From a virus: a stretch of 64,000 bases of DNA. Shown here in pieces: positions 187-63,469 of this stretch (the stretch's first letter is position 1; the number at the start of each line of letters is the position of its first letter). A model generated the notes under the pieces. It did not search any database and was not told the origin of the DNA. It was given only the letters and a program-made list of their open reading frames with translations. The stretch is taken from positions 38,727-102,726 of the IMG/VR virus record IMGVR_UViG_3300033233_000017. One strand, written 5' to 3'. The translations under genes and the position numbers were made by a program.

Positions 187-1535
187 ACCCAATCTCATCA
201 CAAACATACGTTGAAGCAGCGGACTATTTCCGCAATTCGCAGCGACCGGAACAAGCGGAATTCTTCTATCGCCAAGGGCTGGTGCTCGATCCTGAATATG
301 AGCCCGCGCTGAAGGGGCTAACTACGCTCCTGCCTATGCGGGGTCGCTATGCCGAAGCCGAACGCATGGCGAAGACTCTCCTGGAACTCTACCCCCAGAG
401 CGCCTGGGCTCATGCCACGCTCTGCCAAATCGACTTTCATCGAGGCAAGATCTACGACGCCTACGGGCACATCGAGCAGGCGTTGTTCCTGGACCAGAAA
501 GAACCGTCGTTCTGCCGCCGCAAGGCGCACCTACTCCAGATCCTCGGGGACTTTTCCGCCAGCCTGGAGTGGTGGTCGAAGGCGATTGAACTCTTCCCGC
601 TAGACCCGTCGCTCCGCACCATGCGGGCTATGGCGAATCTGACGCTCGGAAACTGGGAGGAAGGACTTCCGGAATATGAGTTCCGATTGGCGCATACGCC
701 TGTCATCCCGGCCAAAGGGGTCCCGAGATGGGCGGGAGATTCTCCGTTACGGGGGAAGAGGTTATTGCTGGTTCTCGAACAGGGAATCGGAGACTGCATC
801 CAGTTCGTGCGCTTCACTGAGATTCTGTGTTGGGCTGGCGCGACCGTCAGCCTGTCCCTTCCCGAAACTCACGCGAAAGCGCTGACTCCGCTGTTCGATT
901 GGGCGCTGCCTTTTGGCAGTATTGCTTCTCCCGACGACACCGATTTCGACTACTGGGTCCCGGCCATGTCTCTCCCGCTCCTGTGGAAATGGCGTTCACC
1001 TTCGCCGCAGTTGGCGTATGTGCGCATACCCAAAGATCCGGTTCCGCTTCCAGGGGATGCTCCGCACGTGGGCTTCTGCTGGGCTGGAAATCCGGAGCAT
1101 CCGAATGACCGCTACCGCTCGATCCACCGATCCGAAGATGCGCTGGCACTCACCTCGGTCGAGGGCATCGACGGATACTCGCTGCAATGGCTCGGAGATG
1201 GGGCCAACGCCGCGCCGATTCTGAATGGCAACCTGAACTCCGGGATCGCGCTGACCTCGTGGGTGGACACGGCTAGGTCAATCGAGCAACTGGATCTGGT
1301 CGTCACGGTCGATACCGCTATCGCGCACCTCGCCGGCGCGATGGGCAAGCCCGTGTGGTTGTTGGTCGCATCGAACCCGGACTGGCGCTGGGGTTTGCGC
1401 GGAGAGAAGACCAACTGGTATCCGACTATGAAGATCTTCCGGTCTAGCGGGCTGGACAATTGGCAACCGGTGATTGAGCGCGTGCGCGCCGACCTCGCGG
1501 CGCTGGTGGAGGAAAGGAGCGAAGCGCGTGCCTGA
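183..1535 (+). CDS. TPR-repeat protein fused to a GT9-like (GT-B) glycosyltransferase domain
   Basis: N-terminal TPR helices followed by EQGIGDCIQFVRF, GFCWAGNPEHPNDRYRS and DLVVTVDTAIAHLAGAMGKPVWLL..DWRW motifs typical of TPR-GT9 proteins. Confidence 0.85.
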   Translation: MNPISSQTYVEAADYFRNSQRPEQAEFFYRQGLVLDPEYEPALKGLTTLLPMRGRYAEAERMAKTLLELYPQSAWAHATLCQIDFHRGKIYDAYGHIEQALFLDQKEPSFCRRKAHLLQILGDFSASLEWWSKAIELFPLDPSLRTMRAMANLTLGNWEEGLPEYEFRLAHTPVIPAKGVPRWAGDSPLRGKRLLLVLEQGIGDCIQFVRFTEILCWAGATVSLSLPETHAKALTPLFDWALPFGSIASPDDTDFDYWVPAMSLPLLWKWRSPSPQLAYVRIPKDPVPLPGDAPHVGFCWAGNPEHPNDRYRSIHRSEDALALTSVEGIDGYSLQWLGDGANAAPILNGNLNSGIALTSWVDTARSIEQLDLVVTVDTAIAHLAGAMGKPVWLLVASNPDWRWGLRGEKTNWYPTMKIFRSSGLDNWQPVIERVRADLAALVEERSEARA

Positions 1536-1893
1536 GCAAGAACAGAAGGTCCTAATTTCGGAATGGATTTCCGCATGGGCGGTGAACGATAAGCCCACTC
1601 AAGAACGGGCTAATCAGGGCTTGAATGCCACGGGTCTGTGGGCGTACGAGGCCGGTTCTGGGTTGCCAATAATCAGCCATTGGTATAACGGCCAGATTAA
1701 GCCAGGAATGCGTTTTATTTGGAATCCTGGGGGTACGGAACAAAAATGCCGAGTCACCCGTGTGACAACCGGAGGCGATGAGCCACTGGTGTGGTGCGTA
1801 GATGTGGCGGGCGGACCGGAGTTCTATAACGAGGAAAGCCATTTCCGGGCTATGGTAGCCCCAGTTGGTGAAGGGGGGCAATCGCGTGCCTAA
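1528..1893 (+). CDS. hypothetical protein
   Basis: GTG start at 1528 with AAGGAG RBS at 1514-1519, overlapping the upstream stop; in frame with ORF 1474..1893. Confidence 0.55.
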   Translation: MPEQEQKVLISEWISAWAVNDKPTQERANQGLNATGLWAYEAGSGLPIISHWYNGQIKPGMRFIWNPGGTEQKCRVTRVTTGGDEPLVWCVDVAGGPEFYNEESHFRAMVAPVGEGGQSRA

Positions 1894-1905
1894 AGGTGGA
1901 AGACT

Positions 1906-2373
1906 ATGCCGCGTAAATCCCCACCGCTGTTAACCGTCTGCCGTAAGGGGCTGCATCCCTTTACAGAGGACAACTGCACATACTACAACGGCCACCGCCG
2001 CTGTCGAGCCTGCATCCGCTTATCCAAGCGGCGGCAGGTGCTTCGCAATCGTAAGACGCAAGACCTTGATCCAGAAGTAGAGTTAGTCCGGCCCGCTGAA
2101 ATTCCGCATGGGTTTTCGGTGCGCCCGGTTAAGGGGTTCTGGCCGAGCGTCATGCGCAGGCTATCACTGGTGCCCAAAGGACACGCGCTCAAGATCGACT
2201 TCGGAGCGGACTACTTACCCAATTTGCCTTATCTCTACGAAACGGCGCGGGCGGAAGGCGTCAAATTCCGCGCGATTTGCCGTAACCAGATCACCTACCT
2301 AATTCGCACAGGATCATACGCTCATGCTCAAGGAACTGTGGATCGGTCTGCTGCATTGGCTCGGGTTTCATGA
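1906..2373 (+). CDS. protein with an N-terminal HNH-associated Zn-finger (CxxGxHxFxxxN..RxCxxC)
   Basis: Motif VCRKGLHPFTEDNCTYYNGHRRCRAC; RBS AGGTGGA upstream. Confidence 0.6.
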   Translation: MPRKSPPLLTVCRKGLHPFTEDNCTYYNGHRRCRACIRLSKRRQVLRNRKTQDLDPEVELVRPAEIPHGFSVRPVKGFWPSVMRRLSLVPKGHALKIDFGADYLPNLPYLYETARAEGVKFRAICRNQITYLIRTGSYAHAQGTVDRSAALARVS

Positions 2374-2563
2374 CTGGCAGGAATGCGGGTTTAGCTACGT
2401 CTCCCCGCTGACCACCACGACGCTGCAAGGAGAACCGGATAGTTTCATGCCGGTTCTGCACGGAGCGTCTCACCTCTACTTCCGCTGCTCTCGTTGCCCA
2501 GATGCAGTGAAGGAAGTTATCGTCTCCGGAAATTTTCGGGCAACGTCACGGAGGGCGGAGTGA
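2324..2563 (+). CDS. small hypothetical protein (HDW..CxxC)
   Basis: Fills the gap between neighbours; its stop overlaps the GTG of the GT4 gene. Confidence 0.45.
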   Translation: MLKELWIGLLHWLGFHDWQECGFSYVSPLTTTTLQGEPDSFMPVLHGASHLYFRCSRCPDAVKEVIVSGNFRATSRRAE

Positions 2564-3657
2564 TACACGTTGCTATGCCTACGGGCGATTTCCATGGATG
2601 GGGCGTCTGCGGGACGCAACTGCTGAAACACATCCCCGGCGCAACCCCTATCGAGGATTTCGAATTCCCACTCATAGTGGGCAATCCGGTGCTCCAGGCC
2701 ATCCAGGGTGTCAATCTACTGCCGCTGCGACCGAATATCTCAAGTTCGGTCGCCAACATCGGTTACGCCTTCATCGAAGACGACGAACTGGTCAAGCGGT
2801 ACGTGCCCAACGGGGAACGCTACTTCGACCACATCGTCGGCGGCAGCAGGTGGTGTGCGCAGATTCTCCGCAACGCGGGGCTCAAGAACGTGTCGGACAT
2901 CCCGCAGGGCGTGGACTATGAGCAGTTCAGCGCATTCACCCCCGCGAATCGAACCCGCTATCGGGATGACTTCGTGATCTACAGCGGCGGCAAGATCGAG
3001 TACCGCAAGGGCACGGATCTAGTCATCGAAGCGGTGCGCGTCATGATGCAGCGGCACGACAATGTTCGGCTCCTGCCCATGTGGTACAACCCATGGCCGG
3101 AGACCATGAAGACGCTGGCACAGTCACGGCTCGAACTGAACCTGTCACTATGCACAAACAGCCCCTACGCCTGCGTCAACTTCATCCACGACACCCTGCA
3201 TCGCAACGGCATCCCACTTGACCGGGTGATCCCGATCCGGCAAGTGCCCAACGGGGCGGCGGTAGCCGAGTACATCCACAACTGCGACGTGGGCCTGTTC
3301 GCCAGCCGCTGCGAAGGCGGCACGAATCTAGGGCTCATGGAGACGCTGGCTTGCGGGATACCCTGCATCGCCAGTAATAACACCGGGCACGAGGACGTAA
3401 TTGACGAGGGGGTGTTGCCGCTGTACAAGCAGACTCCCGTGCTCACATCCGGAGTCCATACGTGGTACGAGTCCGACGTGGAAGAGATGATTGAGGCGCT
3501 GGAGTGGTGCTACAGACACCGGGGCGACGCCGAGTACCGCGAGATGGGGGATCTGGCACGCCAGTGGATGCGGCTCAACTTCACTTGGGACGGCGCAGCG
3601 AAGCAGTTTATGGACATTGCGCGCGTATGCGCGCGTACGTCAGAGGAAGGAAAGTGA
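2560..3657 (+). CDS. glycosyltransferase family 4 (GT-B fold)
   Basis: Motifs GGKIEYRKGTDLVIEA and FASRCEGGTNLGLMETLACGIPCIAS (E-x7-E); probable GTG start at 2560. Confidence 0.85.
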   Translation: MIHVAMPTGDFHGWGVCGTQLLKHIPGATPIEDFEFPLIVGNPVLQAIQGVNLLPLRPNISSSVANIGYAFIEDDELVKRYVPNGERYFDHIVGGSRWCAQILRNAGLKNVSDIPQGVDYEQFSAFTPANRTRYRDDFVIYSGGKIEYRKGTDLVIEAVRVMMQRHDNVRLLPMWYNPWPETMKTLAQSRLELNLSLCTNSPYACVNFIHDTLHRNGIPLDRVIPIRQVPNGAAVAEYIHNCDVGLFASRCEGGTNLGLMETLACGIPCIASNNTGHEDVIDEGVLPLYKQTPVLTSGVHTWYESDVEEMIEALEWCYRHRGDAEYREMGDLARQWMRLNFTWDGAAKQFMDIARVCARTSEEGK

Positions 3658-4828: not shown

Positions 4829-4833
4829 GGATC

Positions 4834-7800
4834 TTATTTGCGCGGAGGTTCAACTACTTTTTTGAACCGTACATCTGGCGCATTTCCTCCGCGAAGGATT
4901 TTGGCCCTTTCTCTTGAAAGACTTCGGCTAGGTGGTTGACCCGAGCCTGCTTTGCGAACTGCTCCTTCGCCTGCGCCTTGGCTCGGTTCACTGCCTCCTT
5001 CGGCCACGTTATGCTGTCTTGCGAGGATTCCGGATCGGACTCTTGGGCTGGCATACCTGTAGAAATCATAGACCCTCTCTCCGTGGTGTTCAAAGACTTT
5101 CTGCAACATATCGGACATCAGGGAAATGTCTTCCTCCAACGTCAACCCCAGACGGGCATAGCCACCAGACATCCCATCCGCCATCACTTCTCGGACCAGC
5201 GTGTCCGGGTCTTGCTCGTACTCGTAGCGTTCTACCAACCGCTGCGATGCGCGGCGGTAGAGCGGGTGGATTTCCATGGACTCGTAATTAAACATCTTCC
5301 CGATGGCCGCTTGATGGCGGTGCTGTATCTCATGCCGGAAAGCGCCCTTGACGCTTGCCAGCGTTTGCCCTTCCGTTGTGACCATGACAAACCCGTGCTC
5401 GTCGTTGGTATTGATGGCGTGGTCGATAGCATCGGCCAACCGGATGAGCGCGCTCCGGGACTCGCTGGTCATGTTCGGGTACGGATCTTCCCGCAGCAGA
5501 CCAGAGAGAGACGTGGCATCTTCGGCAGTGATGTGGACACCGCCAAAGCTCGGAACCGGTGTCTCATTGATGTGGGAGAACGCGGCGCGCAGCACCCGCA
5601 TGGCAGCGTCATTAATGAAGAGATGCGCAGGCTTCGCTCCTGCCCTATCGCGGTAGCGGAAGTCGGCTTTCCCAAAGATGTCCATGGGCTTGTCGGTCGG
5701 AAGGACCGGGTTGTCGTTAAGGCCGGACGGAGCGCGCAGCGCCTTCGGAGGCTCCGCGACGGCGGTATTGCCGGCCTTCTGGAACTGCGGTTGCCCCTCG
5801 TAGAGCACGGACTTGCGCATCTCAGGAGTGATGTCGAGGGAGTGGAGTTCGTGGTATCTTGCGGGAACTCCTTTCATCCCCACTACGTCTTCTCCAGGGA
5901 CGCGCACGGTCCCGACTTTCGCTCCCCACTTCTTAGCGTACTTGTTGGCGTAGGCGGGGAGGATCTTATCGTAGAAACTAGCCATCCCGGAGCCACCAAC
6001 CTTCAGGTCTAGGCCAGAGTATTCCAATGCTTCACCTGTTGGTTTTGTTTGCGCGTCAGTGACGATCTTTTCTGCCAAGTCCTTCGGTTCGAATGTGCCG
6101 GGAACGATGTCATAGTCGCCTGACCCCTTGGGAGTGTAGGAAAGCGTAAATTTTCCATCACTCTGCTTCCGCGCCAGTACGGAGTCAATCTGTTTCGACA
6201 AGTCGTATCGTTCTGCCTGCTCGTAGTGCCGCACCGCTTCCGCGTGCTGGTCCCATATCTGCTGCACCTCTGCTGCGGGTGCTCCGTTGCGCTGTCGCCA
6301 TTGGGCTTCGCGCTCCAACCTCCGCGCTTCTTCCGCCCACTCGGGTCCAGTCTTCCCGCCCGCTGGCGAGTGTGTGATCTCCTTGACTTCGACCGCGTTC
6401 TGCTTCAAGTAGTCGAGCACTTCGGCCTTGGAGACCTTCTGGCCTTTCTTGCTCTCCAGCCAGTCGTCCAGCCCGGTCCACTTCGCTTCATCGGCTTTTC
6501 CGAATTGACGCACGATGTTTGTGACCTGCTCCGCAGACGCAGCAGCAGGCATCTTCGCCTCCAGAGCTTTGGCGGTCGGAGAGAACCACATGGGCGCGAG
6601 TTGCGGCGGTTCTTCCACCGCTTCGGTAGTCTTCTGGAAACTTGGACCGCGAACGGGAGGCTTCGGTGTCTCTTGTATGCGCGCAGACGTGGGCGATTTC
6701 ATCACCTCGTTAGTTACGTCAACCGCGTACGGTCCTTCCGCATCATGCTCAATCCTGAGTACGCGAGCAATGTTGGATGCGGGGATGGGTGTTTTGGATG
6801 AAAACTCGCCAGCACCTTCATGCACCAACGAAGCGGTTTTTTTTACCTCAAGCAGATAACCGGGCTTAGCGATGTAACTGGTCGCGATGCTTGGCCTATC
6901 ACTAAAAAACGTAAGCCCCGCGTGCTGCGTCTTCTTTAGCCTCGCTGCTGTTTCACCACTGGATTCGATTTTCCCGGATGACAGGATCTTTTGAAGTTCC
7001 GCCTCTCCTTCAGATCCGCGATACACGTATCCGTCTTGTAGGCGAGAATGCCCATAGAACGCAATCTCCGCCGTGTTCGTGTCGGGCTCCTTGGCTGATG
7101 GGCGCGCATACGCCTTCCCGCCTAGCGGGATCTCGACCTTGTTGCCGTCCTTTCCCGAGAACTTAACCCGGTCGATGGTGACGTTCTTTCCGTCCAGCGC
7201 GGCGCTTCCGGCGTACTGCTCTCCGCGCCCCGGCTTCACGTAGGCCACGGTCACGTGCGGCTTGTAGGTGGGGTGCGTGTCGGTGACTTCGAGCGCTCCG
7301 GAGATCTTCTTGTTGAGACGGCGCAGGTCCGGCGAGTCCACGTCGATCTTCACCACGTCGGCGTCGTCGTTCTGGGACAGCGAGGTCTTCCCGAGTTTTA
7401 CCGTGACGGGTGGCTCGTTCGCGAGTAGCGCCCGCACTTTGGCCGGATCGCTCGTGTGCAATCCATACTTCACCGTAACGTGCGGCTCAGTCTCCCGACC
7501 ATTGGCTGCGAGGTCCCTTCCGGGAATCTTGGCTGCTTCCGCCTTGACCTTGGACGCAAGGGACGCGGGCAGGTTCACCTGCGTCGATGAGAACTCGTGC
7601 CGCCACGGCTCGCTCTCCATCTCTTTGGACGGTGGTTCGCCAGTCCGCTGGAAGCGCGGTGGCGTTCTGGTGCGACGGTGCCACATGCTCTGCGAATCCC
7701 GAAACTTGGTGCCAAGTTTGATCCCGGCGTCGGAGAGCATGTCACCGTACTTCTGCTGTTCCGACTGCGGGAAGCCTGCGATCACTTTGCCGTTCTTGGC

Positions 7801-13800: not shown

Positions 13801-14181
13801 CTGCGCCAAGGGGATCGGAGGTTGCGCGCCGGGAACTCCAGGAGCCTTCGGAACACCGAAACTACCGGAAGTGAGACGCCCGATCTCGTCGCTGGCCTGC
13901 TTCTTCGAGAGCTTCGGCGGCGCGGGTGGCGCGGGTGGCTCCATGCTCACCGCGACCGGAGCAGTTGGCGCGGGAGTATGCGCGCGTACGTTGAGTTCCT
14001 GCTGTGCTTCGGGAAACTTACTGAACCAGAGTTGCCGTTTGGCCTCTTGGGGAAGATCAATGGCGTCGAACGAGTCGATGAATTGTCGGCGGTCCTGCGC
14101 TCCGTAGAACGCTTTCCAGGCTTGGTCCTTGACCTCCATCGGAACCGCTGTACTGTCCAGGATCGACTTGATATCGGGCAT
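4834..14181 (-). CDS. 3115-aa large polyvalent (DarB/strawberry-notch-like) virion-delivered protein
   Basis: ParB-like domain (VVNGHHRL, ~11150-12125); SF2 helicase (GGTGSGKT, SEESH, FLTATP, SGGTGINL, QLLGRIWR; ~8000-9425); MutS-I-like (GDYIEFFGNDAEKVA..AGFP, ~7720-7880); 2H phosphoesterase (two PHVT, ~7120-7600); ART-like (~6700-7030); LPD-type domain (~5790-6595); zincin HEIQH (~5320-5334). Last gene after the ejection proteins. Confidence 0.85.
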   Translation of the reverse strand: MPDIKSILDSTAVPMEVKDQAWKAFYGAQDRRQFIDSFDAIDLPQEAKRQLWFSKFPEAQQELNVRAHTPAPTAPVAVSMEPPAPPAPPKLSKKQASDEIGRLTSGSFGVPKAPGVPGAQPPIPLAQAYANADTQISEGARQIAANPPKVPAPPQDAMLDPGVQQRIQQSVEGFAQMPAREKGVALSGAEWGKADLGSPEAQKVMEGAWSGYGGYLPAPKTKPEAWRNAFLGTALGFVSADGLASMLAATGVVGALGKLVQAPRVAATLNRVPIVRDAIYEALRRGPQVAFTAMGLEGGIEARRQSKALKGQGKELESYQKDIETALNLLLPASIAAGVVMEGVPTRGIGRPTARRPENLNMLPPAGEPQTATPEPAMPSAPAGTPLLPGAAGTPLLVAHRPVVKPFEVVSPPPAAPATAEAARPAIPMPPISTPRAPEVKSFEVVSKQPEPQATPNAKADPQVQEVQAKIAALEAQAQPLSEQIREGTLRRGAVTNLPELRQQHDAIQQQIQATIDGLPLGLRYRYEVALHGAESLGAQSAYKAVLTDMGIPVAEPPAAAPKSAALSTTPETPDTLNLQLEQLRQDQRRVVMSPQGAEPPQRELQIRAASEPPALGSTSIAAPASSGIGVPPAAAPVAQTIPPAPAAPVVAPVVAPVVAPVVAPTATPTSKLPNGRPAYPSDQDSVIVPTADIEADPNRFQYKMDAIGQGGTTDLLRDVSVWDPKQAGTIWLWWDPVAKKTFVVNGHHRLQLAKRLGVENMRAQYLDDAKTPQAARVAGALMNIGEGRGSAIDAAKLFRDSNLTPADLAQRGLTLRESKAGEGMALSKLTDPIFRQIVDEEITVARGVIIGNMLGDNHPAQEALVKLLSERPDVTNRGLVELIKLAKGAPKKTKSEETLFGTEEATVNLLPEMAGLSDYVKQRILQEKKLFGAVSSEASAKRLSESGNVIQTDKNAEVAQSARQAQELYGRLAYSAGPINEALQEGARELAEGGKPAEVRARTYERVREALQETLSGGKGTSAGVDSPSSETGTGSGVGDLFGRNPEAVATENARANESRSASIQKAQLEAELNAKQGVAAPDMEGSALFSGKPIDEQPQQALDLSPTETPNPSPKSIEPPSVKSGRKDGTAKEVLGRYVDPIEILRDRATSSLDIHGKPTGWLRAETENGAVLIHPSMDRVVRFEASNQQSGTEVLRARTEASAFAIDNPIEAKSPELSGELVVKPIYSKEPPAPENAKPSVAGPPKPAKAVPVKVTDKSVRDFPVTIKVANGVITGSLRLAGKTYPTITIPVDKWPTEKTAKHFGNPRYDQRQLVRAEMERAGVASFTEEGAKNAERIADAHVSAILKALAPAVAAPPKASQKVPSGPASKEVIQPAEPPKKEAPRSGNDAPKTILDMTPDEVMAKALEQFQAAKAKKKVGNFQQNGGGEPPPFEFPASMSKSDIEEFQDFFKGWYKQQIESIIESKQVSLGDERLQRHLAAFPDLKAKYAENAQSAPVAPPTLGTAKPATGAGPGHPQPNAGADLGLGRPLHGGSGADGHAANNEAASGRSQELPTGKISKQIITVGNPPTLGASSVPKPKTATLAPHQEQAAAAAAKEIETGGGMLNAGGTGSGKTPASAAVAKYFLDQGKAVFLAGPAEVFKFPKPNSDWPTGSYEFWLKEYGIAPIRYHEGITKFEPGKFYISTYEKCGTAPVDKNTVFISEESHAAKNIGSSARSGIITRLADDAHGVLFLTATPADKPYHIGYLKRIGILEGQSEAAAIAKLGMELVEHENSKGQTFTRWEIRKGFTPAQVRKNFTALFGRMIEQGKMRKEEISLDGLDIHALNMVLPAEGKADLDFIDKAMMTPNPAVRLMHLRRQQEPFKVASTIKLAQKELAEGRKVIIFTSRVNRSDVKNKHKLRNQYGEVVDEWEEVIYSSEGTAKTLKAELIKAGIDPSRIAELHGGAEEKGAEAMRRFQDNEADIVIATAKSGGTGINLDDTTGKHPRTVVVMTPEFDAMSNVQLLGRIWRMTTESKGRVFYLFADTPIDRWNAKVFSEKMKTLSSIVQGESKKMDVGAYYGVDEQDALREYLASEASGGKFESTGRKQQTLTGSIYGDYIEFFGNDAEKVAEITGVPIHTAKNGKVIAGFPQSEQQKYGDMLSDAGIKLGTKFRDSQSMWHRRTRTPPRFQRTGEPPSKEMESEPWRHEFSSTQVNLPASLASKVKAEAAKIPGRDLAANGRETEPHVTVKYGLHTSDPAKVRALLANEPPVTVKLGKTSLSQNDDADVVKIDVDSPDLRRLNKKISGALEVTDTHPTYKPHVTVAYVKPGRGEQYAGSAALDGKNVTIDRVKFSGKDGNKVEIPLGGKAYARPSAKEPDTNTAEIAFYGHSRLQDGYVYRGSEGEAELQKILSSGKIESSGETAARLKKTQHAGLTFFSDRPSIATSYIAKPGYLLEVKKTASLVHEGAGEFSSKTPIPASNIARVLRIEHDAEGPYAVDVTNEVMKSPTSARIQETPKPPVRGPSFQKTTEAVEEPPQLAPMWFSPTAKALEAKMPAAASAEQVTNIVRQFGKADEAKWTGLDDWLESKKGQKVSKAEVLDYLKQNAVEVKEITHSPAGGKTGPEWAEEARRLEREAQWRQRNGAPAAEVQQIWDQHAEAVRHYEQAERYDLSKQIDSVLARKQSDGKFTLSYTPKGSGDYDIVPGTFEPKDLAEKIVTDAQTKPTGEALEYSGLDLKVGGSGMASFYDKILPAYANKYAKKWGAKVGTVRVPGEDVVGMKGVPARYHELHSLDITPEMRKSVLYEGQPQFQKAGNTAVAEPPKALRAPSGLNDNPVLPTDKPMDIFGKADFRYRDRAGAKPAHLFINDAAMRVLRAAFSHINETPVPSFGGVHITAEDATSLSGLLREDPYPNMTSESRSALIRLADAIDHAINTNDEHGFVMVTTEGQTLASVKGAFRHEIQHRHQAAIGKMFNYESMEIHPLYRRASQRLVERYEYEQDPDTLVREVMADGMSGGYARLGLTLEEDISLMSDMLQKVFEHHGERVYDFYRYASPRVRSGILARQHNVAEGGSEPSQGAGEGAVRKAGSGQPPSRSLSRERAKILRGGNAPDVRFKKVVEPPRK
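12191..12238. repeat. 4 x 12-bp tandem repeat (GCTACAACCGG[C/G]) encoding PVVA repeats
   Basis: Seen directly in the Pro/Ala-rich linker before the ParB-like domain. Confidence 0.9.
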
Positions 14182-18834: not shown

Positions 18835-19398
18835 TTATGGCTTTTTAAACGCTCCGCCACCCACTGCTGTCCCCGCGGCTCCGGCTAACTGCCCGAAGAA
18901 CCCCATCGTCGTGGCCTTGCCTTGGGCGTCTTGCTGCATGACGTTGCCGATCATGGACGCCGCGCCTTCGTTCCCGCGCAGTCCCGCGCCGGTCTGCTGC
19001 AACGCCACCTGTGCGTTCTCTTTGCCCAAGTTCGCCAGCCCGCCGAAAGCGTTCATCCACGTGTCATTTAGGTACTTCGAGACGGCATCGCCTTTGGCTG
19101 TCTGGGCGCTGGCAAGGGCGTAGTCCCGCCCCGCGCCTGCCGGAGTCTGTTCGAGGATGTTCTCTTTGGCCTGCTGATATTGCTTGGAGATGTTACTGAC
19201 AGCGGGCGCGGTGGCTTGTGCGGACAGATCCCGGCTCCCGCCGATGATCTTCTGGAACAGGTCGGCAATGGGTTGTTCGTACTTGGTCTGCTTGTCGAAG
19301 CCCTGTTGCGCAAGGGCAGCCATCTTGTCCGCGACATCGGACTGCTTGCGTGCGGTCTCGCGCTCAAACGACTTGTCTTCCTGTTTAGGTCCCGACAC
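18835..19398 (-). CDS. DNA pilot/ejection protein (P22 gp7-like)
   Basis: Q/A/G-rich with a C-terminal Gly-rich hydrophobic tail (FFGQLAGAAGTAVGGG); follows the GNAT gene. Confidence 0.6.
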   Translation of the reverse strand: MSGPKQEDKSFERETARKQSDVADKMAALAQQGFDKQTKYEQPIADLFQKIIGGSRDLSAQATAPAVSNISKQYQQAKENILEQTPAGAGRDYALASAQTAKGDAVSKYLNDTWMNAFGGLANLGKENAQVALQQTGAGLRGNEGAASMIGNVMQQDAQGKATTMGFFGQLAGAAGTAVGGGAFKKP

Positions 19399-31459: not shown

Positions 31460-31496
31460 GGATCAACCTCCGGCGTATGCGCACATACGCTCTAAG

Positions 31497-34983: not shown

Positions 34984-35064
34984 GAGAAAATCGCTACTTA
35001 GAAGAGGCTTACGGGGTTAGGCGCTAGGTATGTGCGCATACGCGGAGGTGGGAAAACGTTGAAA

Positions 35065-38899: not shown

Positions 38900-39030
38900 A
38901 AAAGCTCGGTCCTCACTTGGAAGTATAGGTCGAAAAATTAATTGGTACAATACTTTCTGGTCTTTTTCTTACGCAACACATCAAGATGTGCCACGTAAGC
39001 ACAACCGCAGGAAGACGTATGCGCATACGC

Positions 39031-43313: not shown

Positions 43314-43344
43314 CTCCGTCTCCCATATGCGCACGTACGCGCAG

Positions 43345-50849: not shown

Positions 50850-53800
50850 CTATCTATCAGCCTCCGCATACAGGAAGGAGATGTGCAGGTTCTTCGCGAC
50901 CGCTTCCAGGGTCCGCGTCACAGCCAGAAGGTACATATTCACATCCGCCTTTGGGCGCGTTGTGAGCCCTGAGCAGACCTGAGAGCCATTGATCCAGAAG
51001 GTTGTCGTTCCCGCCGTATCGTTGTTGATGATCTCAAACTGCGTAGGGACCGCCGCAACCGCCACCCCGCTATCTGCTCCCGCTTGCGCAGCAGGCGCGG
51101 AAGTCTTCGCGGCGATGCACTGCCAGTTCGTATCGACTCCCGCTGTGTAGCGGAAACCCATGTAATCCTGTCCTGTTGGTAGATCGTAGGCGGTCTGAGC
51201 CGCGTTGGACCCGGTCGTGAACCCGATAAACGTGCGAGCCGTCCCTGTAAGCTCTACGGGGTTCGCAAGCGCTTGCCCTCTGAGATTTCGACCAGTTCGA
51301 TAGAGGGCCGCTGTCACCAGTACCGATGCAGAATCCGTAGTAGCTGCGCTTAGGATGTTCGCAGTTGGCCCGTTCGTGGCGTCTACAGCGACCGCCGATA
51401 CGGTCCCGGTAGCTGGGCTGCCTGTCCCGCTCCCAACCTGCGTCCAGGTAGTGCCAGACCCGAAGTACATAATATAGGACCATCGCGCGGTTAGCAGTCG
51501 CGGAATCCCGGAGCCAGAACCTCCGCTATCCGCCGTACACGTCACAGTTGAGTCCTCGCCGATGGTGCTAACATGCTGGCCCGCGCCGCAGGTCTTCGCC
51601 TGCACCTTCCCGCCGGCGCTCACGGTCGGATTAGGGAGGTCGGTGGAGGCAATCGCGCCACCTGGAGCGTAGTAGTCTGTCCCGGCTGATGCCGCAGCGG
51701 TCGTGTTCGCGGCGGTGCGTTTGACGATGCCATTCGCGCCGGGGTCAATCAGCCCCTCGATATCCGTCTTGGCAGTCGCGGTGACCTTTTTGAGAACTCC
51801 CGCTTCGTAGCAGAGCGCCGCATCGTAGCCCGTGTCGGGCGCAGCGGGACAGGTTCCCTGAATGAGTTGAAAATTCAAAGGGCCACCTAGCCCCGCTTCT
51901 ATGGAGGTGGCCTTGAGTTTGTGTGTCCCGAGGTCTACATCCGTCGTTGCTCCCGTGTACGGAACCCCTGTAGCTGCTGGCAGGTAACTGGCGGAGATCA
52001 GGCCGTCCGTTTCCAACGGCGCGTAACCCGAGGGCTGGCCTTTGTTGACCGTCGCCTCCGCGCCGATCTGCGAGGGGGTGAGCGCATCGGATTGCGCTGT
52101 GGCATGTGAGGCGGCGTGGGCGGTAGGAGTGCGAGGGTTGGTCATGCGCGAGTCATCACCAGCGGCGACCGTCCCCGCGATGGTGCCGACGTTGAGCAGT
52201 GCCGCGCCTCCGAGCCCCGTTACTTTGGAGTTCGCAATTGCCGTAAGCCAGGAAGGGTTACTATAACTTCCCCCACTACGCAAGATGGTGGCGTCCACAG
52301 GCTCCGCTCCAATCGCAGCCGGGGTGAGCGGATCACTCCCGCCCGTCGCGTGCTGTGGGGCGTGCAGGCCCACGGGAGCCGCAATCGTGTCCGATCCATC
52401 CGCGTTCTTGGTAATGGTGACGTTGGTGCCTGCGATCAGCGTCTTGGTCGATCCGCTGACGTATGTGCGCGTACATGGGTCCACCCAGTTGTCGGCGCTC
52501 ACGCTGCATTGCGCGACCGGGATGGTATCGAACGGATATCCGGTTACGGAACCGTCTGTGGCGATATTCTCCAGCGTCCCGGCGCTGGTCACCCCGCTGC
52601 CCAAGCCCGCCGTTAGCCCTCCTGTGAGCGTCAAGTAGAAGTACACCGTACCGGTTCCGGCAGGACTCGTGGCGGTGCCCACCTGGGTGCTCATGGTGGC
52701 TGTGTGTCCAAAGCGGTACGATCCGCTGGAGATCGAAAGCACGTCGGTGCCGGTGTTTACGGTGGCAGTGAAGTCGGTGCTTCCTCCGCCCGCTCCCGCT
52801 ACGGTGATATTGACCTGATCGTTTCCAGCGTCATCGACAATGGTGCCTGCCGAAAAGTTCAGACGCTTGCGGGTTCCGATGAGCGTTCCGGCGAGCGCGA
52901 TTTCAACTTTCTGCGTGGTGGTGTTGGCCGCAACCGTCAGCGTTCTATTCGCGCTGAGATCGCCACCCCCTGTCAATCCGGTTCCGGCGATGATCTGGCG
53001 CGTCGTGCCCACTTTCCCGTTGAACAGGCTCCAGTCCGTGGAACTGAGTGCGCCGCGCGTCGTCGCGCTGGCGTTAGGCAGGTTGAAGGTGTGCGTGTTC
53101 ACCGAGGAGACGATGTTGAAATCCGCGCCCGTGGTTCCGGTAGCGAAACCTTGCGTCGGGCCGGTCTGCCCTCCTAATGTCGAGATACCGCCGCTCGCTC
53201 CCGTGAAGTCAATATTGATGCGGTCATTCGTAGGATCGTCGGACACCGACGCGCCCGCGCCGAAGTTCACCTGAGAACGCGTGCCCATGAGTGTTCCGTT
53301 CAGCAGCACGTTGACTTTCTGGCGCGTCGTGTTCGTCACCACACTCAAAGTTCGGTCCAGGCTGAGATCGCCTCCGCCTGTGAGTGTAGAATCGGTGAAG
53401 ATCGACCGCGTGGCCGGGACTTTGCTGTTGAACGTTGTCCAGTCCGTGGAAGTCAGCAGACCGCGCGCATCTGCCGCCGCACTCGGGAAATTAAACGTAT
53501 GCAGTGCTCCGGAAGACACGATACTGGGAGCCTGTCCTGTGGTGCCAAGGGAAAACGTCTGCGTAGCCGTCGTCAGTCCGTTGATACTGGAGACTCCTCC
53601 ACCGACCGTTCCGGAGCCGCTGAGACTTCCGACGTAGAAGTCCTTGGTCGCGGAATAATTGATGACCGGAACGCCCGTGACGGTGAACTTCACGTAGGCG
53701 TGGTAACCGAACCCGGAGCCAACGCATGAGGCCGAATTGTTATCGACGTAGGCGGTGCTTCCGAAATCCGTCCAAGGTCCGGCGCTCGATTCCGACCAGG

Positions 53801-54017
53801 ACATCTGAGCGGTCCAGGAGCCTGTACCCACGGCGCAGAACGAGTGATAGTTGTTCTGCCGGAGAAGCGCACTGCGGTTGTCGATCAGCGTCGTTCCCAC
53901 GTTGTACAGGCGCGTGACGCGCAACGGCTGTGGCACGGTTTGACCGTTCGCGGTGGTGGTTAAGAGCAGGCCCACGATCAGGGCGCAGATCCACGAGAGG
54001 ATACGCTGCATCGACAA
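50850..54017 (-). CDS. signal-peptide-bearing tail-fibre-like protein (ATG at 54011 is the likelier start)
   Basis: MQRILSWICALIVGLLLTTTANG; two ~135-aa repeats (RG.L.STDW..FN.K, LTGGGDLS..RTL); HAxxHA knots; AAGDDSR; VPYTGATTDVDLG. Confidence 0.7.
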   Translation of the reverse strand: MSMQRILSWICALIVGLLLTTTANGQTVPQPLRVTRLYNVGTTLIDNRSALLRQNNYHSFCAVGTGSWTAQMSWSESSAGPWTDFGSTAYVDNNSASCVGSGFGYHAYVKFTVTGVPVINYSATKDFYVGSLSGSGTVGGGVSSINGLTTATQTFSLGTTGQAPSIVSSGALHTFNFPSAAADARGLLTSTDWTTFNSKVPATRSIFTDSTLTGGGDLSLDRTLSVVTNTTRQKVNVLLNGTLMGTRSQVNFGAGASVSDDPTNDRINIDFTGASGGISTLGGQTGPTQGFATGTTGADFNIVSSVNTHTFNLPNASATTRGALSSTDWSLFNGKVGTTRQIIAGTGLTGGGDLSANRTLTVAANTTTQKVEIALAGTLIGTRKRLNFSAGTIVDDAGNDQVNITVAGAGGGSTDFTATVNTGTDVLSISSGSYRFGHTATMSTQVGTATSPAGTGTVYFYLTLTGGLTAGLGSGVTSAGTLENIATDGSVTGYPFDTIPVAQCSVSADNWVDPCTRTYVSGSTKTLIAGTNVTITKNADGSDTIAAPVGLHAPQHATGGSDPLTPAAIGAEPVDATILRSGGSYSNPSWLTAIANSKVTGLGGAALLNVGTIAGTVAAGDDSRMTNPRTPTAHAASHATAQSDALTPSQIGAEATVNKGQPSGYAPLETDGLISASYLPAATGVPYTGATTDVDLGTHKLKATSIEAGLGGPLNFQLIQGTCPAAPDTGYDAALCYEAGVLKKVTATAKTDIEGLIDPGANGIVKRTAANTTAAASAGTDYYAPGGAIASTDLPNPTVSAGGKVQAKTCGAGQHVSTIGEDSTVTCTADSGGSGSGIPRLLTARWSYIMYFGSGTTWTQVGSGTGSPATGTVSAVAVDATNGPTANILSAATTDSASVLVTAALYRTGRNLRGQALANPVELTGTARTFIGFTTGSNAAQTAYDLPTGQDYMGFRYTAGVDTNWQCIAAKTSAPAAQAGADSGVAVAAVPTQFEIINNDTAGTTTFWINGSQVCSGLTTRPKADVNMYLLAVTRTLEAVAKNLHISFLYAEADR

Positions 54018-54133
54018 AGACCTCCAGGACGTCCCGCGTCCTGGTTCAATTTTAAGGTCTTATCCCAATGCTTACAATGATTTATGTGATTAACTTAATG
54101 TAATACTTTAAGTTTGCGCGCATACGAATCGGA

Positions 54134-55132
54134 TCACGTATTCCATGTATTCCAAACCCATCGCTTCCAATTATGTTTCGCGGAGGGAGGGTTCGCGCCT
54201 GCCGCACCGCCGCTCTGAGCGCCGCCCGATCCCAAGTAGGAGTAGGTTGCCACTTGCCCCACGAAACTCGTGATCGCCGCACCTCCGTTTTGCGCTCCAC
54301 CGCTGGCGTAAACTGCGTGCGTGACGTTGCGAGTAGCGGAGCCTCCGCTTTGCGCTCCGCCCGATCCGGACACCGTTTTGGTCGCCGCGAGAGGAGCGCT
54401 CCCGCCTGCCTGGGCTCCGCCCGTGCCGGCGTACGTAAAGATCTGGGAGTTGGTGACCAATTGCGTCGTTGCGCTCCCGCCCGCCTGGGCTCCGCCCGAC
54501 GCGATGCAGGCGAATAAATGCAGCACCATCGCCGCTGCCGCGCCCGCTGCAACCGCGCCTCCGGAGCCGGAGTAGGTATAGGTGTTGAGAGCGGGGCTGT
54601 ACGTGATGACAATTGAGACTTCATCATCGTAGATGCTAACCGCATTCGAGGTGCTGCTGCTACTCGTTGCCAGAGCGTTGGCAAGGCGCAACTTGACCGA
54701 TGTATTGCTGGCCTGCATTGCGGAGGGGACCGACTGGTCCGCAAGCGCGGACACATCAACCCACCCGCTGTCGGTTGCGGTAACGGTGCGGCCTGCCCAC
54801 AGGGAGGCTTGCTGCGTTCCTCCAGAATCTCGCAGCGTATAGGGTCCGATACTGGAAGAGGCTCCGCCAGTGTACTCCATGCAGCGGGTAGAGGCCGCGT
54901 TGACTCGGATCGCGGTTACGGTTGCTCCCGCTGGGACCCCAAGCGCTTCCCAGGTTCCGGTCCACTCCCAATAATTGGAGTTGCTCTTGGTTTTTCCGAG
55001 AATGCGCGACTTCAGGGAGCCGAGCGGATTCCCGGCAGCCCCATTCCAAGCCAGGGTAGACGCTGCTCCAGCGGAACCGCTGAAACTCTCGGCCCCCGCC
55101 AGGAACGAGAATGTCTTGGTGATAGTAGCCAC
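54134..55132 (-). CDS. virion-associated protein with six [ST]GGA..[AG]G.A repeats
   Basis: Beta-rich N-domain, repeats such as SGGAQAGGSA, Trp-rich C-terminus. Confidence 0.55.
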   Translation of the reverse strand: MATITKTFSFLAGAESFSGSAGAASTLAWNGAAGNPLGSLKSRILGKTKSNSNYWEWTGTWEALGVPAGATVTAIRVNAASTRCMEYTGGASSSIGPYTLRDSGGTQQASLWAGRTVTATDSGWVDVSALADQSVPSAMQASNTSVKLRLANALATSSSSTSNAVSIYDDEVSIVITYSPALNTYTYSGSGGAVAAGAAAAMVLHLFACIASGGAQAGGSATTQLVTNSQIFTYAGTGGAQAGGSAPLAATKTVSGSGGAQSGGSATRNVTHAVYASGGAQNGGAAITSFVGQVATYSYLGSGGAQSGGAAGANPPSAKHNWKRWVWNTWNT

Positions 55133-56043: not shown

Positions 56044-56415
56044 CTATCCCCTGGCCGCGATAAATCCAGTGACAGCCGCGCCATCCGAAGCCACCCAGGA
56101 GACGCCATTTGGACAGAACCTTCCGCCCTCTTCCCGAGGGAAGACGCGCAGATGATCGGAATTGGCGGCGATGCTCACGGTCGGAACCACTTCGCGAGAG
56201 GGGCTCTGCTTGTCGGTAATCGTCACAGTGACCGTCGCGGCGGATTTGTTGGATAGGTGGATCAGCGTCAGGAACACATCGTTGGTGAATACATCTTCGG
56301 CAGATGCCGGAACCAACTTCGGGTTGATATAGAGCGGCGCTCCGAACTCTGCGGAGCCGTTTTTTACGGTAACAGCCACGAGATCCTCCGAGGCGCAGAT
56401 GCGCCCTTCCTGCAC
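56044..56415 (-). CDS. small jelly-roll-like virion protein; first gene after the late promoter
   Basis: IHLSNKSAATVTVTITD..G..CPNGVSWVAS. Confidence 0.55.
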   Translation of the reverse strand: MQEGRICASEDLVAVTVKNGSAEFGAPLYINPKLVPASAEDVFTNDVFLTLIHLSNKSAATVTVTITDKQSPSREVVPTVSIAANSDHLRVFPREEGGRFCPNGVSWVASDGAAVTGFIAARG

Positions 56416-56504
56416 TTATTCTACGCCGAAAGACCCTGTTTCCAATCCGAAATAGGCGAATAGTTGAAGTGATAGTTCAGGAGCGCGACATATGCGCGCG
56501 TACA

Positions 56505-58783: not shown

Positions 58784-59815
58784 TTACTCGTCCTTCCAGG
58801 GCGCGTCGTCGCTCTCTGCTTCGGAATTACGCGCCGATGCCGGGTCGATGAAGTTAAGCGCCTCCGTGGTGGCGCAGGTTAACCGTTCCACGGTATGCTG
58901 CACCACCGTCGTCGGCACATCCACGCTCCAGCCATCCTGGTCGTTGATCTTTACCCGAACCTTCATACCCGGCTTCAGCATCGCGCCACGCTTGAACGTA
59001 TGTGCGCATACGTGGAACGCTTCTTCGACCGAGACCCCCAACACCCGTACCCCGTTTGAGATGCGGGTGTGGAGAGTCAACGGTGGCGAGATTTGGGTGC
59101 CCTGTTCGAGTACCATGATTTCCGGTAGCGGCAACGGGACCGCTGGCGCGGGTTCCGGCACGGCGGCTTCGGCGTGGACTACCATGGTCTTCGACTTCGG
59201 CTCCGGACTGCGGAACCGCTCCCGTGTTTCGCGCTTTTTGCTGGCTGCCTCCCGCACCGCCTCCGGCCCCTCTTCCACCAGCCTGCGCTGTTCGGCTTTG
59301 GGTAGGTTGACGATCTCCGCAGCCGCCGTGACCGCAACGTCCCCAGAGGCCACGGCGTCGTTCAACTGCGCATCCCCGAATTCGACCACCTGCTGCGCCG
59401 CTTCGATCATGCGCGGCGAGACGTGCATGGTTTCCGCTACCTGCTCGGAGATCTTACCCTGCGGCACTTCTCCCGCCGCCTTGCGCCCGCGCTTGGTTTC
59501 AGCCTTGAGCAGTTTGGCGATCTTGGCCCCGATGTGGGCGCGTTGCGAATCGCTCAGGTGCCGCCGCGTCAGATTCAGGCTGACGACGAAATCGGTCAGC
59601 GATCCTTGCCCGTCCCAGGTCTGATAGGGCGGCTCGACATCCAGGGCTTTACAGGCGTTGTAGCGGTTGCGCCCGTCGATGACGGAGCCGTCTGGATGCA
59701 ACCAGAGCGGTTGGCGCACGCCGTTGCGGGCGATATCGGCCTGTAAATCGGCGGAGGCGCGGCGGTCCATCAAGGGGAAGAGGGCGCAAACGGAGTGAAA
59801 CGGTCGTTCTTGCAT
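58784..59815 (-). CDS. ParB/Srx-like N-terminal domain plus HTH protein
   Basis: LFPLM..LQADIARNGVRQPL..VIDGRNRYNAC..NLTRRHLSDSQRA; HTH EQVAETMHVSPRMIEAA. Confidence 0.75.
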   Translation of the reverse strand: MQERPFHSVCALFPLMDRRASADLQADIARNGVRQPLWLHPDGSVIDGRNRYNACKALDVEPPYQTWDGQGSLTDFVVSLNLTRRHLSDSQRAHIGAKIAKLLKAETKRGRKAAGEVPQGKISEQVAETMHVSPRMIEAAQQVVEFGDAQLNDAVASGDVAVTAAAEIVNLPKAEQRRLVEEGPEAVREAASKKRETRERFRSPEPKSKTMVVHAEAAVPEPAPAVPLPLPEIMVLEQGTQISPPLTLHTRISNGVRVLGVSVEEAFHVCAHTFKRGAMLKPGMKVRVKINDQDGWSVDVPTTVVQHTVERLTCATTEALNFIDPASARNSEAESDDAPWKDE

Positions 59816-59892
59816 GTTGTTTGTCATCTTAAGTTTGCACCCAATCACGCAAGTGGTCAACGTTAAAGAGCGCAGATCTGCGCTGATTCTTC

Positions 59893-60439: not shown

Positions 60440-60462
60440 CTTTCTACTCTCCCTTTTCAGAC

Positions 60463-61621: not shown

Positions 61622-61626
61622 GTGCT

Positions 61627-62079: not shown

Positions 62080-62260
62080 GCGCCCTCCTTAGTATCTCCG
62101 GCTTGGGCACCCACACGCGCCCATCCGCGTTTGTGACAACGTACTCCAACTCGCCCGCCCGAACCATCCTCGTGATCTCCGCAGGGTTCACGTGCAGCCA
62201 GTGGGCGGCGGAGTCGATGGTCAGATAAATCACTCCGTCAACTTCAAACGTTCTGCTCAC
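62063..62260 (-). CDS. MerR/excisionase-like helix-turn-helix protein
   Basis: YLTIDSAAHWLHVNPAEITRMVRAGEL..GRVWV. Confidence 0.65.
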   Translation of the reverse strand: MSRTFEVDGVIYLTIDSAAHWLHVNPAEITRMVRAGELEYVVTNADGRVWVPKPEILRRARALAV

Positions 62261-62457
62261 GACTCTATCCTAGCCTGACGCATATGCGCCTGCTGTTGCC
62301 GTACCCATGCGACGGAGATGTACCAGAGCCCCCCCGGTTGCTTGTACGCCGCTTCGCGGGGGATCTTTCCCTGCGCCAGCCAGCGCCGGATGGTGCGCTC
62401 GGAAATATCCAACTGCTGCGCCGCCAGAGGCGGACTCATGTATGCCGGCGCGCTCAT
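62257..62457 (-). CDS. excisionase-like HTH protein
   Basis: YMSPPLAAQQLDISERTIRRWLAQGKIP..GGLWYI; ATG at 62457. Confidence 0.7.
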   Translation of the reverse strand: MSAPAYMSPPLAAQQLDISERTIRRWLAQGKIPREAAYKQPGGLWYISVAWVRQQQAHMRQARIES

Positions 62458-62741
62458 GCTGACACCTTCACTTCCGTTTTGTGGCACCAGCACGCCTCTC
62501 TGCCCTTCCAGTCGCAGCCCACTGCGGGGCAAGTATTCAGAGGACGAACCGAGAACGAGTGTCCATTCGGGCACGCAAAGTAGAACGTCCGGCAGTTGTC
62601 GTCGTGATTATGGCCGGGAGGAGAATAATACCCAACCAGTGTGGACTTGCACCCCGGAGAGTAGCAAGACGTTCCACAGATCGGGCATTCATGCGTCAGT
62701 GTGCTGACCGAAGACCAGTTGACGTTTGGTAGTTCGATCAC
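62454..62741 (-). CDS. Cys/His-rich zinc-binding protein
   Basis: CPICG, HNHDDNC, CPNGH, CPAVGC, CWCH. Confidence 0.6.
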   Translation of the reverse strand: MIELPNVNWSSVSTLTHECPICGTSCYSPGCKSTLVGYYSPPGHNHDDNCRTFYFACPNGHSFSVRPLNTCPAVGCDWKGREACWCHKTEVKVSA

Positions 62742-63031
62742 AGGCCCAACTCCTTCAGTCGCGCTTCGAGTTCAGGGAAGTAAGCCTTGATCGGCTTCCA
62801 TCCACGCGCCATTTCGGTGTAACTAAAGGCGTTGAAAAGATCCCATAACTCGCTGGCAACCGGGACACCACCTGATCTCATCTTGGAGTAAGAGCACTTA
62901 CTAATCCGATCAATCAGGCAGGAACGATATTCCAGCGCGCGCTTACCCCGAGATAATTCCCGCAACGCCTCCAGCCAAGCTCCAACGATGAGCGCCGACA
63001 ACCCGATCCACACATATACTTCCCATCTCAT
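62738..63031 (-). CDS. membrane-anchored hypothetical protein
   Basis: N-terminal TM; stop overlaps the next start. Confidence 0.5.
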   Translation of the reverse strand: MRWEVYVWIGLSALIVGAWLEALRELSRGKRALEYRSCLIDRISKCSYSKMRSGGVPVASELWDLFNAFSYTEMARGWKPIKAYFPELEARLKELGL

Positions 63032-63469
63032 CGCACCGCTCCTGCATCAGTGATTGCCATAACGCTGAAGACGATCATCACGAAACACACCACAATCACC
63101 GCGATCACCGCCATTACCCAACCGATGTCTTCCGGATATTCGTCCATCATCACTTATTACATACTGCCCGGATCAGCGCCGATAAGATAATCGCCGTTCC
63201 CAGGAAGTACAATGCCCCCAAGATAGATCCTAATTGGGATTGCTGGAAGTAAATCACCATAGTTCCCTCCAAGTATGTGTCCGACGTGTCACCCTGTCAA
63301 GAGTTATTTAGGCTCTTTTTGTTGCTTTTCGTCCCAGAGCGAAAATTGCTCCAAACTTACTCCCGACTTACGATGCTCCTGGTAACGTATGCGCGCGTAC
63401 CCGTGGCGCTCCAGCAGGCGCAGCATTGTCAACCGGAGTAACTCAGCGTTAGAGATAGTGAGTTCCGTC

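Follow-up and report, generated by a model that had tools for sequence, protein, structure and literature searches.

We examined a 64-kb stretch of phage DNA (positions 38,727 to 102,726 of IMG/VR record IMGVR_UViG_3300033233_000017, hereafter the window), which is the end portion of one 102,726 bp contig from an uncultured phage of ~103 kb, and which carries dispersed copies of a 14-bp pseudo-palindrome, GTAYGYGCRCRTAC. The copies greatly exceed chance expectation, are enriched at gene junctions, and are maintained at synonymous positions where they lie within genes, while most relatives of the phage carry arrays of palindromes of their own. We infer that a homodimeric protein encoded by the phage docks on the motif as duplex DNA, and that bound dimers most likely constitute genome-wide transcription control points, a reading of binding, reader and effect together that we hold with about as much confidence as doubt.

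Copies, anatomy and placement of the sites

Nine exact copies of GTAYGYGCRCRTAC were located in the window (at 1016, 3625, 13976, 19763, 31475, 35028, 52461, 58998 and 63387), just as the initial annotation had reported, compared with no exact copy in any of 100 dinucleotide-preserving shuffles of the window. The six one-mismatch copies it had listed were also present (6675, 23221, 43325, 47670, 54112 and 56490), giving 15 copies with one mismatch allowed against 0.10 expected in shuffles, as was a 12-bp perfect palindrome, GTATGCGCATAC, at 39017-39028. The array extends over the remaining 38.7 kb of the contig. Over the whole contig, 12 copies are exact, and 22 sites (roughly one per 4.7 kb on average) are counted when 1-3 transitions or 1-2 mismatches relative to GTATGCGCGCATAC are allowed; a de novo k-mer scan ranked the site word first in the genome. 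The short form GTATGCGCATAC occurs twice, at 39017-39028 of the window and at genome 20307-20318 (L168:307-318), where it ends 18 nt before an ATG; both copies are intergenic, and with them the sites number about 24. Sites in the window were as follows (coordinates here and below are those of the window unless given as genome, that is, whole-contig, positions).

1016-1029, GTATGTGCGCATAC, within a TPR/glycosyltransferase-like gene (183-1535, plus strand), frame 2
3625-3638, GTATGCGCGCGTAC, 32 nt ahead of the stop of gene 2575-3657 (plus strand)
6675-6688, GTATGCGCGCAGAC, one transversion, within the gene for a 3115-aa polyvalent protein (minus strand)
13976-13989, GTATGCGCGCGTAC, 205 nt past the start of the 3115-aa gene (minus strand)
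19763-19776, GTATGTGCGCATAC, in the variable loop of a GNAT-like gene (19385-19984, minus strand)
23221-23234, GTATGTGCGCAGAC, within gene 20894-24124 (minus strand)
31475-31488, GTATGCGCACATAC, intergenic, 15 nt upstream of the start of a conserved 381-aa gene (30314-31459, minus strand)
35028-35041, GTATGTGCGCATAC, intergenic, 24 nt past the 3' end of tRNA-Pro and downstream of the portal gene
39017-39028, short form GTATGCGCATAC, 3 nt past the TerL stop and 118 nt ahead of the start of 38351-38899
43325-43338, ATATGCGCACGTAC, three transitions, intergenic, 11 nt upstream of the start of a beta-helix gene (41691-43313, minus strand)
47670-47683, GTATGGGCGCATAC, 216 nt past the start of gene 44077-47886 (minus strand)
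52461-52474, GTATGTGCGCGTAC, within gene 50850-54011 (minus strand)
54112-54125, GTTTGCGCGCATAC, intergenic, 8 nt past the stop of 54134-55132 and ~35 nt upstream of a promoter-like TTGTAA-17-TAAAAT
56490-56503, ATATGCGCGCGTAC, intergenic, directly past a terminator-like hairpin, 71 nt downstream of a promoter-like TTGACG-17-TATACT and 74 nt ahead of the start of 56044-56415 (minus strand)
58998-59011, GTATGTGCGCATAC, within an orphan ParB-like gene (58784-59848, minus strand)
63387-63400, GTATGCGCGCGTAC, in the poorly coding right end, ~87 nt upstream of a promoter-like TTGACA-17-CATACT

The perfect 14-bp palindrome was found nowhere in the genome. Every site instead pairs two unlike half-sites, drawn from GTATGCG, GTATGTG, GTACGCG and rarer ones, and the two short forms, which lack the central GC, are the sole perfectly symmetric copies. 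The strict alternation of purines (R) and pyrimidines (Y) noted earlier is real and reaches 18 bp, giving the frame RC-GTAYGYGCRCRTAC-GY, with R at flank position -1 in 39 of 44 half-sites and Y, mostly C, at flank position 0 in 38 of 44. Alternating runs of at least 14 nt number 21 in the genome, of which 18 are sites and two are short forms, compared with 5.5 runs in shuffles. Flanks further out are not conserved, which argues against a mobile repeat.

Genes, which were called with a self-trained codon model on the whole contig, run on the plus strand from 1.8 to 43.5 kb and on the minus strand from 43.6 to 102.7 kb. Coding copies fall in all three frames and on both strands across the contig, in agreement with the initial annotation, and the placements singled out there (behind tRNA-Pro, past stop codons, over a ribosome-binding site, and past the terminator-like hairpin at 56490) were borne out. 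Of the 22 sites, 8-10 are intergenic, at distances of 11-194 nt upstream of a start codon, another four precede a stop codon by 26-113 nt, and the remainder are within genes; nine are not fully contained in a coding sequence, compared with about three expected (p=1.4e-3). Neighbouring sites are 1.65 to 8.3 kb apart (coefficient of variation of the gaps 0.44) with no cluster, and just 0.04% of random placements were equally even (p=4e-4). When codons were shuffled synonymously within genes, 1.3 coding copies were left compared with the 10 seen in confidently called genes, and 10 was not attained in any of 150 shuffles. This codon-preserving comparison, which the initial annotation had called for, shows selection at the level of the DNA, with the coding copies kept at synonymous positions.

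Two details of individual sites were also recorded. Three in-frame coding copies in unrelated genes (genome 3278 and 17074, window 13976) all encode x-V-(R/C)-(A/T)-H-T-P-A; the codons of the trailing Pro-Ala differ among them, and the shared residues may reflect chance or a slightly wider constraint. Upstream of dnaB, the site is nested in a ~30-bp palindrome, CTTGTTCC-GTACGCGCGCATAC-TGGAACAAG (L168:13798-13828, genome ~33798-33828), within an 800-bp non-coding gap that runs from an O-like initiator gene to dnaB and may be an origin or control region; no iterons, iteron cluster or origin signature were found around the site in this gap.

Lineage-specific arrays in related phages

The genome is that of a tailed phage, with the following structural and packaging genes in the window.

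32059-33135, major head protein
35440-37326, portal
39031-41283, TerL

Other recognised genes encode a scaffold, large tail or fibre proteins, and the 3115-aa polyvalent protein with helicase and 2H-ligase-like parts, while the left arm of the contig encodes a DnaB-type helicase, the O-like initiator with a helix-turn-helix (HTH), an SF2 helicase, RecT and an AAA+ protein. The stretch was found in two DNA sediment-metagenome runs, and no RNA run was listed as containing it. CheckV estimates completeness at 100%, and IMG/VR classes the contig ends as linear; the final 112 bases (window 63889-64000) duplicate genome 129-240, as either a near-terminal direct repeat or an assembly overlap.

Cultured phages are remote relatives (TerL identity at most 30%), and TerL homologues number in the hundreds, on contigs of 95-116 kb, with a best identity of 50%. 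The analysis covered 80 TerL loci from IMG/VR and then 15 whole genomes, which together with the present contig form a clade set of 16 whole genomes (G000-G015). The initial annotation had raised the question of whether related phages share the motif: the exact sequence was absent from all 80 related loci, but relatives bear palindrome arrays of their own. Elsewhere, exact 14-mers occurred only as singletons in IMG/VR and, among the matches listed, in GTDB genomes of many phyla. The motif is thus neither a host-wide nor a widespread word.

Blind clustering of pseudo-palindromes, for which the largest cluster in shuffled controls contained two members, recovered an array in 12 of the 16 whole genomes, each with its own 14-16-bp palindrome in 12-32 copies; shuffles of the first six genomes held 0.15-0.7 copies of their own motif. 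The palindromes of the array genomes have the arms GT(C/A)-N8-(G/T)AC in common, with the following motifs in the relatives.

G001, GTCCAGTACTGGAC
G002 and G008, GTCCAGATCTGGAC, common to both
G003, GTCCCACGTGGGAC
G004, GTCTCTATAGAGAC, with flanks RC..GY as in the present phage
G005, GTCTGKATCCAGAC
G006, GTCCGRATTCGGAC
G007, GTCTTGNNCAAGAC
G010, GTCYAATATTRGAC
G011, GTATTGATCAATAC
G014, GTSCAACGTTGSAC

The centres of these palindromes are themselves palindromic (GCGC, GATC, GTAC, ACGT or TATA), and half-site variants are never compensated on the opposite arm, where most would yield C-A mismatches on the sense strand. Together these features fit a dimer that reads duplex DNA; they speak against a cruciform, and the reading as an RNA hairpin or terminator was rejected on account of them.

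Patterns of placement were shared across the clade. Pooled over the 12 array genomes, 94 of 217 sites are not fully within a coding sequence, compared with 34.4 expected, and coding copies summed over 11 genomes amount to 96, compared with 11.7 under synonymous shuffling. Spacing is more even than random in four of the 12 (G000, G004, G005 and G014). Asymmetric sites are aligned with transcription 11:1 in G005 and perhaps, at 12:4, in G000, whereas G001 and G003 show no such bias. In some relatives, sites adjoin sigma-70-like promoters, directly upstream of the -35 element in G004 and G005 and over +1 to +20 in G003. Site positions recur regionally across lineages, not to the base: the ~195-aa GNAT-like core gene bears a site at its start, variable loop or end in seven of 10 array-bearing relatives, and the sites of G000, G010 and G014 share one variable loop that has been reshaped to fit three different motifs. 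Likewise, a site lies upstream of the 381-aa gene family in five of the 12 array genomes (the null maximum was four, in 6 of 200 trials), and several relatives likewise have a site downstream of the portal gene. The tiling of most of these ~100-kb relatives by lineage-specific palindromes suggests landing sites for a DNA-binding phage protein that evolves fast.

Candidate proteins reading the sites

The initial annotation had proposed that a dimeric phage protein reads the sites genome-wide and had named three candidates for it. The general proposal is the best-supported reading, suggested by the dyad symmetry, uncompensated half-site variants, synonymous maintenance, lineage-specific versions, and lack of copy clusters in host-type genomes; the named candidates mostly found no support. 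The proteins considered below are encoded as follows.

58784-59848, minus strand, orphan ParB-like protein, the reader favoured initially, with PHROG ParB-like matches only (E to 2e-17)
38351-38899, minus strand, clade-core 182-aa protein beside TerL, present in 16 of 16 genomes
genome 36094-36900 (L168:16094-16900), outside the window, uncharacterised clade-core 268-aa HTH protein, beside dnaB

The orphan ParB-like protein matches neither Pfam ParB_N nor HTH_ParB, and none of the 15 relatives, 11 of which bear an array, encodes a homologue. ParB_N-HTH proteins are encoded by nine relatives, and an array site lies in the promoter of the ParB-like gene in G003, G004 and G014. However, the presence of a ParB is not tied to that of an array, given arrays without a detectable ParB in G001, G005, G007 and G008, and a ParB-like protein in three of the four array-less genomes (G009, G012 and G013). 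On this distribution, ParB was rejected as a conserved reader. BLAST comparison with five relatives gave no match to the 3115-aa polyvalent protein, and the supposed ribbon-helix-helix protein at 38351-38899, which occupies the small-terminase position beside TerL, showed no detectable ribbon-helix-helix or HTH family match.

Our preferred candidate, put forward with low confidence and rather more doubt than belief, is the 268-aa HTH protein. Its family is encoded in 15 of the 16 genomes and has 656 homologues in a library of 1.8 billion proteins, with no match in Pfam or PHROGs, no detectable ParB_N domain and no HMMER match among PDB sequences. The HTH carries the signature GYxTFxxF...GISRxxxY with a variable recognition helix, and the N-terminal part is sigma-region-4-like. 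An AlphaFold (AF2) model built from a 128-sequence alignment reached pLDDT 89 (a low-depth model, at pLDDT 63, gave weak matches only), and residues 72-186 of the former were best matched by VIA-align to the ParB DNA-binding domain on parS (6s6h, Z 7.1, root-mean-square deviation (rmsd) 4.0, 96 aligned residues), followed among ParB-family structures by Spo0J (1vz0, Z 6.2), KorB (8qa8, Z 5.5, rmsd 3.7, 93 aligned), and SopB, VirB and P1 ParB (Z 3.7-4.3). Foldseek ranking agreed (probability to 0.92, E about 1), and neighbours in the ESM Atlas, taken as leads only, included DUF3102 and ParB HTH. A symmetric homodimer was predicted with ipSAE 0.66, compared with 0.00 for the best control, with runs sharing at least 55% of contacts and a partner pLDDT of at least 69; among solved structures, 20 of 30 homodimers and 1 of 23 monomers attained the mark used. 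This prediction supports, rather than shows, dimerisation of the 268-aa protein. Array sites also occur close to the gene, 47-50 nt upstream of it in G004, G005 and G014 (three lineages with three motifs) and upstream of dnaB in G000 and G005, and the two genomes with a common array motif, G002 and G008, share the start of the 268-aa recognition helix.

Proposed control points, rival readings and known systems

Under the favoured reading, the reader protein would co-evolve with its sites and recognise a frame of ~18 bp, RC-GT(A/C)-N8-(G/T)AC-GY, with the outer arms conserved and the core changing between lineages. The present genome keeps about 24 sites, which prefer gene and operon junctions, with the others written into genes via synonymous codons. 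Bound dimers would then act as operators beside promoters, and as polar roadblocks or insulators between and within operons, much in the manner of KorB at OB sites or of the Cluster A repressor at stoperators. Enrichment at junctions, promoter-abutting copies and the orientation bias, taken together, favour such a transcriptional role. More specifically, we consider it possible, though on balance doubtful, that phages of ~100 kb from sediment and soil, forming a deep and uncultured clade, have in common a conserved genome-tiling system in which a core CTPase-less HTH dimer resembling the ParB DNA-binding domain reads this 18-bp frame, its inner bases having been repeatedly re-specified with all 12-32 sites, the in-gene ones too, switching in step with the reader.

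Several results weigh against these proposals. Four genomes (G009, G012, G013 and G015; L196-L217), two of them 100% complete, have no array though they encode the 268-aa protein, and no protein family among the 16 genomes has a presence/absence profile that matches the array. Structural matches to the 268-aa model are modest throughout (all Z <8, Foldseek E ~1) and include the RuBisCO chaperone Raf1 (Z 6.5) alongside the ParB family, while hhalign found no significant profile similarity between the 268-aa family and the true ParB-HTH proteins of the relatives. Similarity of recognition helices did not track similarity of motifs once overall identity was removed (partial rho 0.02 across 11 genomes, a null result); in these genomes, Glu at helix position +2 accompanied T at motif position 4 in 4 of 4 against 0 of 7. 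Finally, most sites have no recognisable sigma-70 promoter nearby and most such promoters have no site, which weakens a purely transcriptional role.

Two alternatives share the docking-site format, and we regard each as improbable, though not negligibly so. One holds that the protein recruited to the evenly placed sites serves to organise, protect, replicate or package the chromosome (by bridging and compaction, by self-marking against host defences, or as entry points for a helicase or primosome), with transcription not its target. Spacing that is more even than random in four genomes, positions conserved regionally but not to the base, the location of over half of the sites deep in genes yet held at synonymous positions, and the placement of the candidate 268-aa gene within the replication module, with dnaB and the O-like initiator as neighbours, are all consistent with such a lattice. 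However, it has no need of the intergenic enrichment, promoter-abutting sites, or orientation bias in G005 and G000; four relatives manage without an array; and the site upstream of dnaB lacks an iteron cluster or origin signature. In the other alternative, a CTPase clamp of the ParB family, namely the ParB-like protein encoded at 58784-59848, would load at the sites as at parS or OB and slide from them to silence, compact or mark the genome. The 14-16-bp palindromic format resembles parS, Noc-binding (NBS) and OB sites, the protein has PHROG ParB-like matches with a site inside its gene, and, besides the ParB_N-HTH genes and promoter sites of relatives described above, the G003-type ParB subfamily is confined to array-bearing genomes (five of 12). 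Against this stand its lack of homologues in the relatives and of a Pfam ParB_N match, the mismatch between arrays and ParB in seven genomes, the lack of a ParA match (Pfam AAA_31, whole contig), and the different palindrome, AGCGCAGATCTGCGCT, found at the promoter of its gene.

Two further readings are far less probable. A structural DNA element (Z-DNA or a cruciform), or a nicking or modification target, might be suspected from the near coincidence of alternating runs with sites and from flank positions that retain purine/pyrimidine class rather than base identity, but we consider this very unlikely. The motifs of relatives, e.g. GTCCAGATCTGGAC and GTCTCTATAGAGAC, do not alternate, and the RC..GY flanks also surround the non-alternating motif of G004; alternation is peculiar to the version in the present phage, and Z-DNA is ruled out as the general explanation. 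The uncompensated half-site changes speak against cruciforms or hairpins, and restriction or modification sites are normally not selected to be over-represented. Least probable of all is a host-wide or mobile repeat merely shared by the phage (a HIP-like word, an uptake sequence, or the footprint of a miniature inverted-repeat transposable element), given the unconserved outer flanks, the occurrence of the 14-mers only as singletons in IMG/VR and among the matches listed in GTDB, and sister phages whose arrays share the architecture but not the motif.

Among published cases, the closest is a 17-bp dyad repeat (TGTTCGG-N3-CCGAACA) in Cluster O mycobacteriophages, present in >30 copies over ~70-kb genomes, ~40% of them intergenic and the rest in genes, with most copies remote from promoters and none in host genomes or other phages; its authors proposed a dimeric DNA-binding protein, leaving reader and function unknown (Cresawn et al. 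2015, PMC4351075). The present array is similar in consisting of tens of copies of one dyad word, genome-wide, in and between genes and absent from unrelated phages. It differs in sequence and half-site spacing, in having many asymmetric sites that align with transcription in two genomes, and in a core that varies by lineage across a deep clade, whereas the Cluster O arms are invariant over all five genomes.

Dispersed dyad repeats in phage genomes were known before, the unexplained Cluster O repeats being one case, and a mechanism is known only for stoperators and for plasmid KorB with its OB sites, which would by analogy offer the closest functional model. KorB of the IncP-1 plasmid RK2 exerts genome-wide control from 12 palindromic OB operators at kb-scale spacing, whose distances to promoters vary from directly upstream of -35 to far from any promoter, and, as a CTPase clamp of the ParB family that has a ParB N-terminal domain, works with KorA and the ParA-like IncC (PMC11790492). 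The 22 sites here are likewise a dispersed palindrome; in relatives, some sites abut -35 or cover +1 of sigma-70-like promoters while most are distant from promoters, and KorB is among the modest structural matches of the putative DNA-binding domain of the candidate 268-aa protein. In contrast to KorB, this candidate has no detectable ParB_N, no ParA was found, and the ParB-like protein of the window is not clade-conserved; ParB-like proteins are patchy and unassociated with the array, unlike a clamp conserved together with its sites. Cluster A stoperators, read by L5 gp71-type repressors, comprise dozens of short sites on both arms, in and between genes, and are 13-bp, asymmetric, monomer-read and orientation-biased elements of temperate phages that co-evolve with their reader between lineages (PMC9283540, PMC6550527). 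Dispersal in and between genes and lineage-specific versions are common to both systems, and an orientation bias is seen here in G005 and perhaps G000 but not in G001 or G003. However, the frame here is dyad-symmetric even though individual sites are asymmetric, implying a dimer, and no integrase, resolvase or ParA was found.

Searches of the whole contig found no tyrosine integrase, serine recombinase or resolvase, and no ParA-type ATPase (Pfam AAA_31 had no match, compared with matches in 14 of 14 control genomes; CbiA/PF01656 was not searched). No repressor was identified in the phage, and no lysogeny genes were seen in the searches for integrase, resolvase and ParA. Classical parABS partition and L5-type lysogenic immunity, both suggested initially, are therefore not backed. 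parS and Noc-binding sites are 14-16-bp palindromes read by the HTH domain of ParB or Noc, and parS sites cluster near the origin or centromere and need ParA for partition. The resemblance to these lies in palindrome length and in the best, though modest, structural match of the candidate reader, a ParB domain on parS; unlike parS, the sites here tile the whole genome evenly with no centromere-like cluster. With no ParA match (Pfam AAA_31) and unclustered sites, the array is not a parABS member, nor, with dyad-symmetric sites and none of the lysogeny genes searched for, is it an L5-type system.

If the clade-wide proposal is true, the array and its reader would form an undescribed, phage-wide, co-evolving lattice of protein and sites for genome control or organisation, which may share a principle with the Cluster O repeats. 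Here such an array spans a large uncultured clade, with a conserved outer frame, a lineage-specific core, and in-gene copies under synonymous-site selection. This raises three testable questions: how a binding specificity and its dozens of cognate sites can shift in concert, what advantage a lytic-looking 100-kb phage draws from a chromosome tiled by the landing sites of one protein, and whether a CTPase-less ParB-like domain family with >650 homologues and no Pfam family is the reader. The array also provides a practical signature for grouping and annotating such phages.

A second palindrome, (AATC)AGCGCAGATCTGCGCT(GATT), is over-represented in the genome as well, with seven copies (window 59869-59884; genome 4230, 9567, 10923, 14053, 14336 and 14387, in L167). 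The copy in the window precedes the -35 element (TTGACC) of the ParB-like gene by 8 nt, and two pairs bracket the two IS1595-family transposase genes of the contig (genome 6417-7448 and 11097-12077). This palindrome is either an insertion sequence end or the operator or parS of the orphan ParB-like protein.

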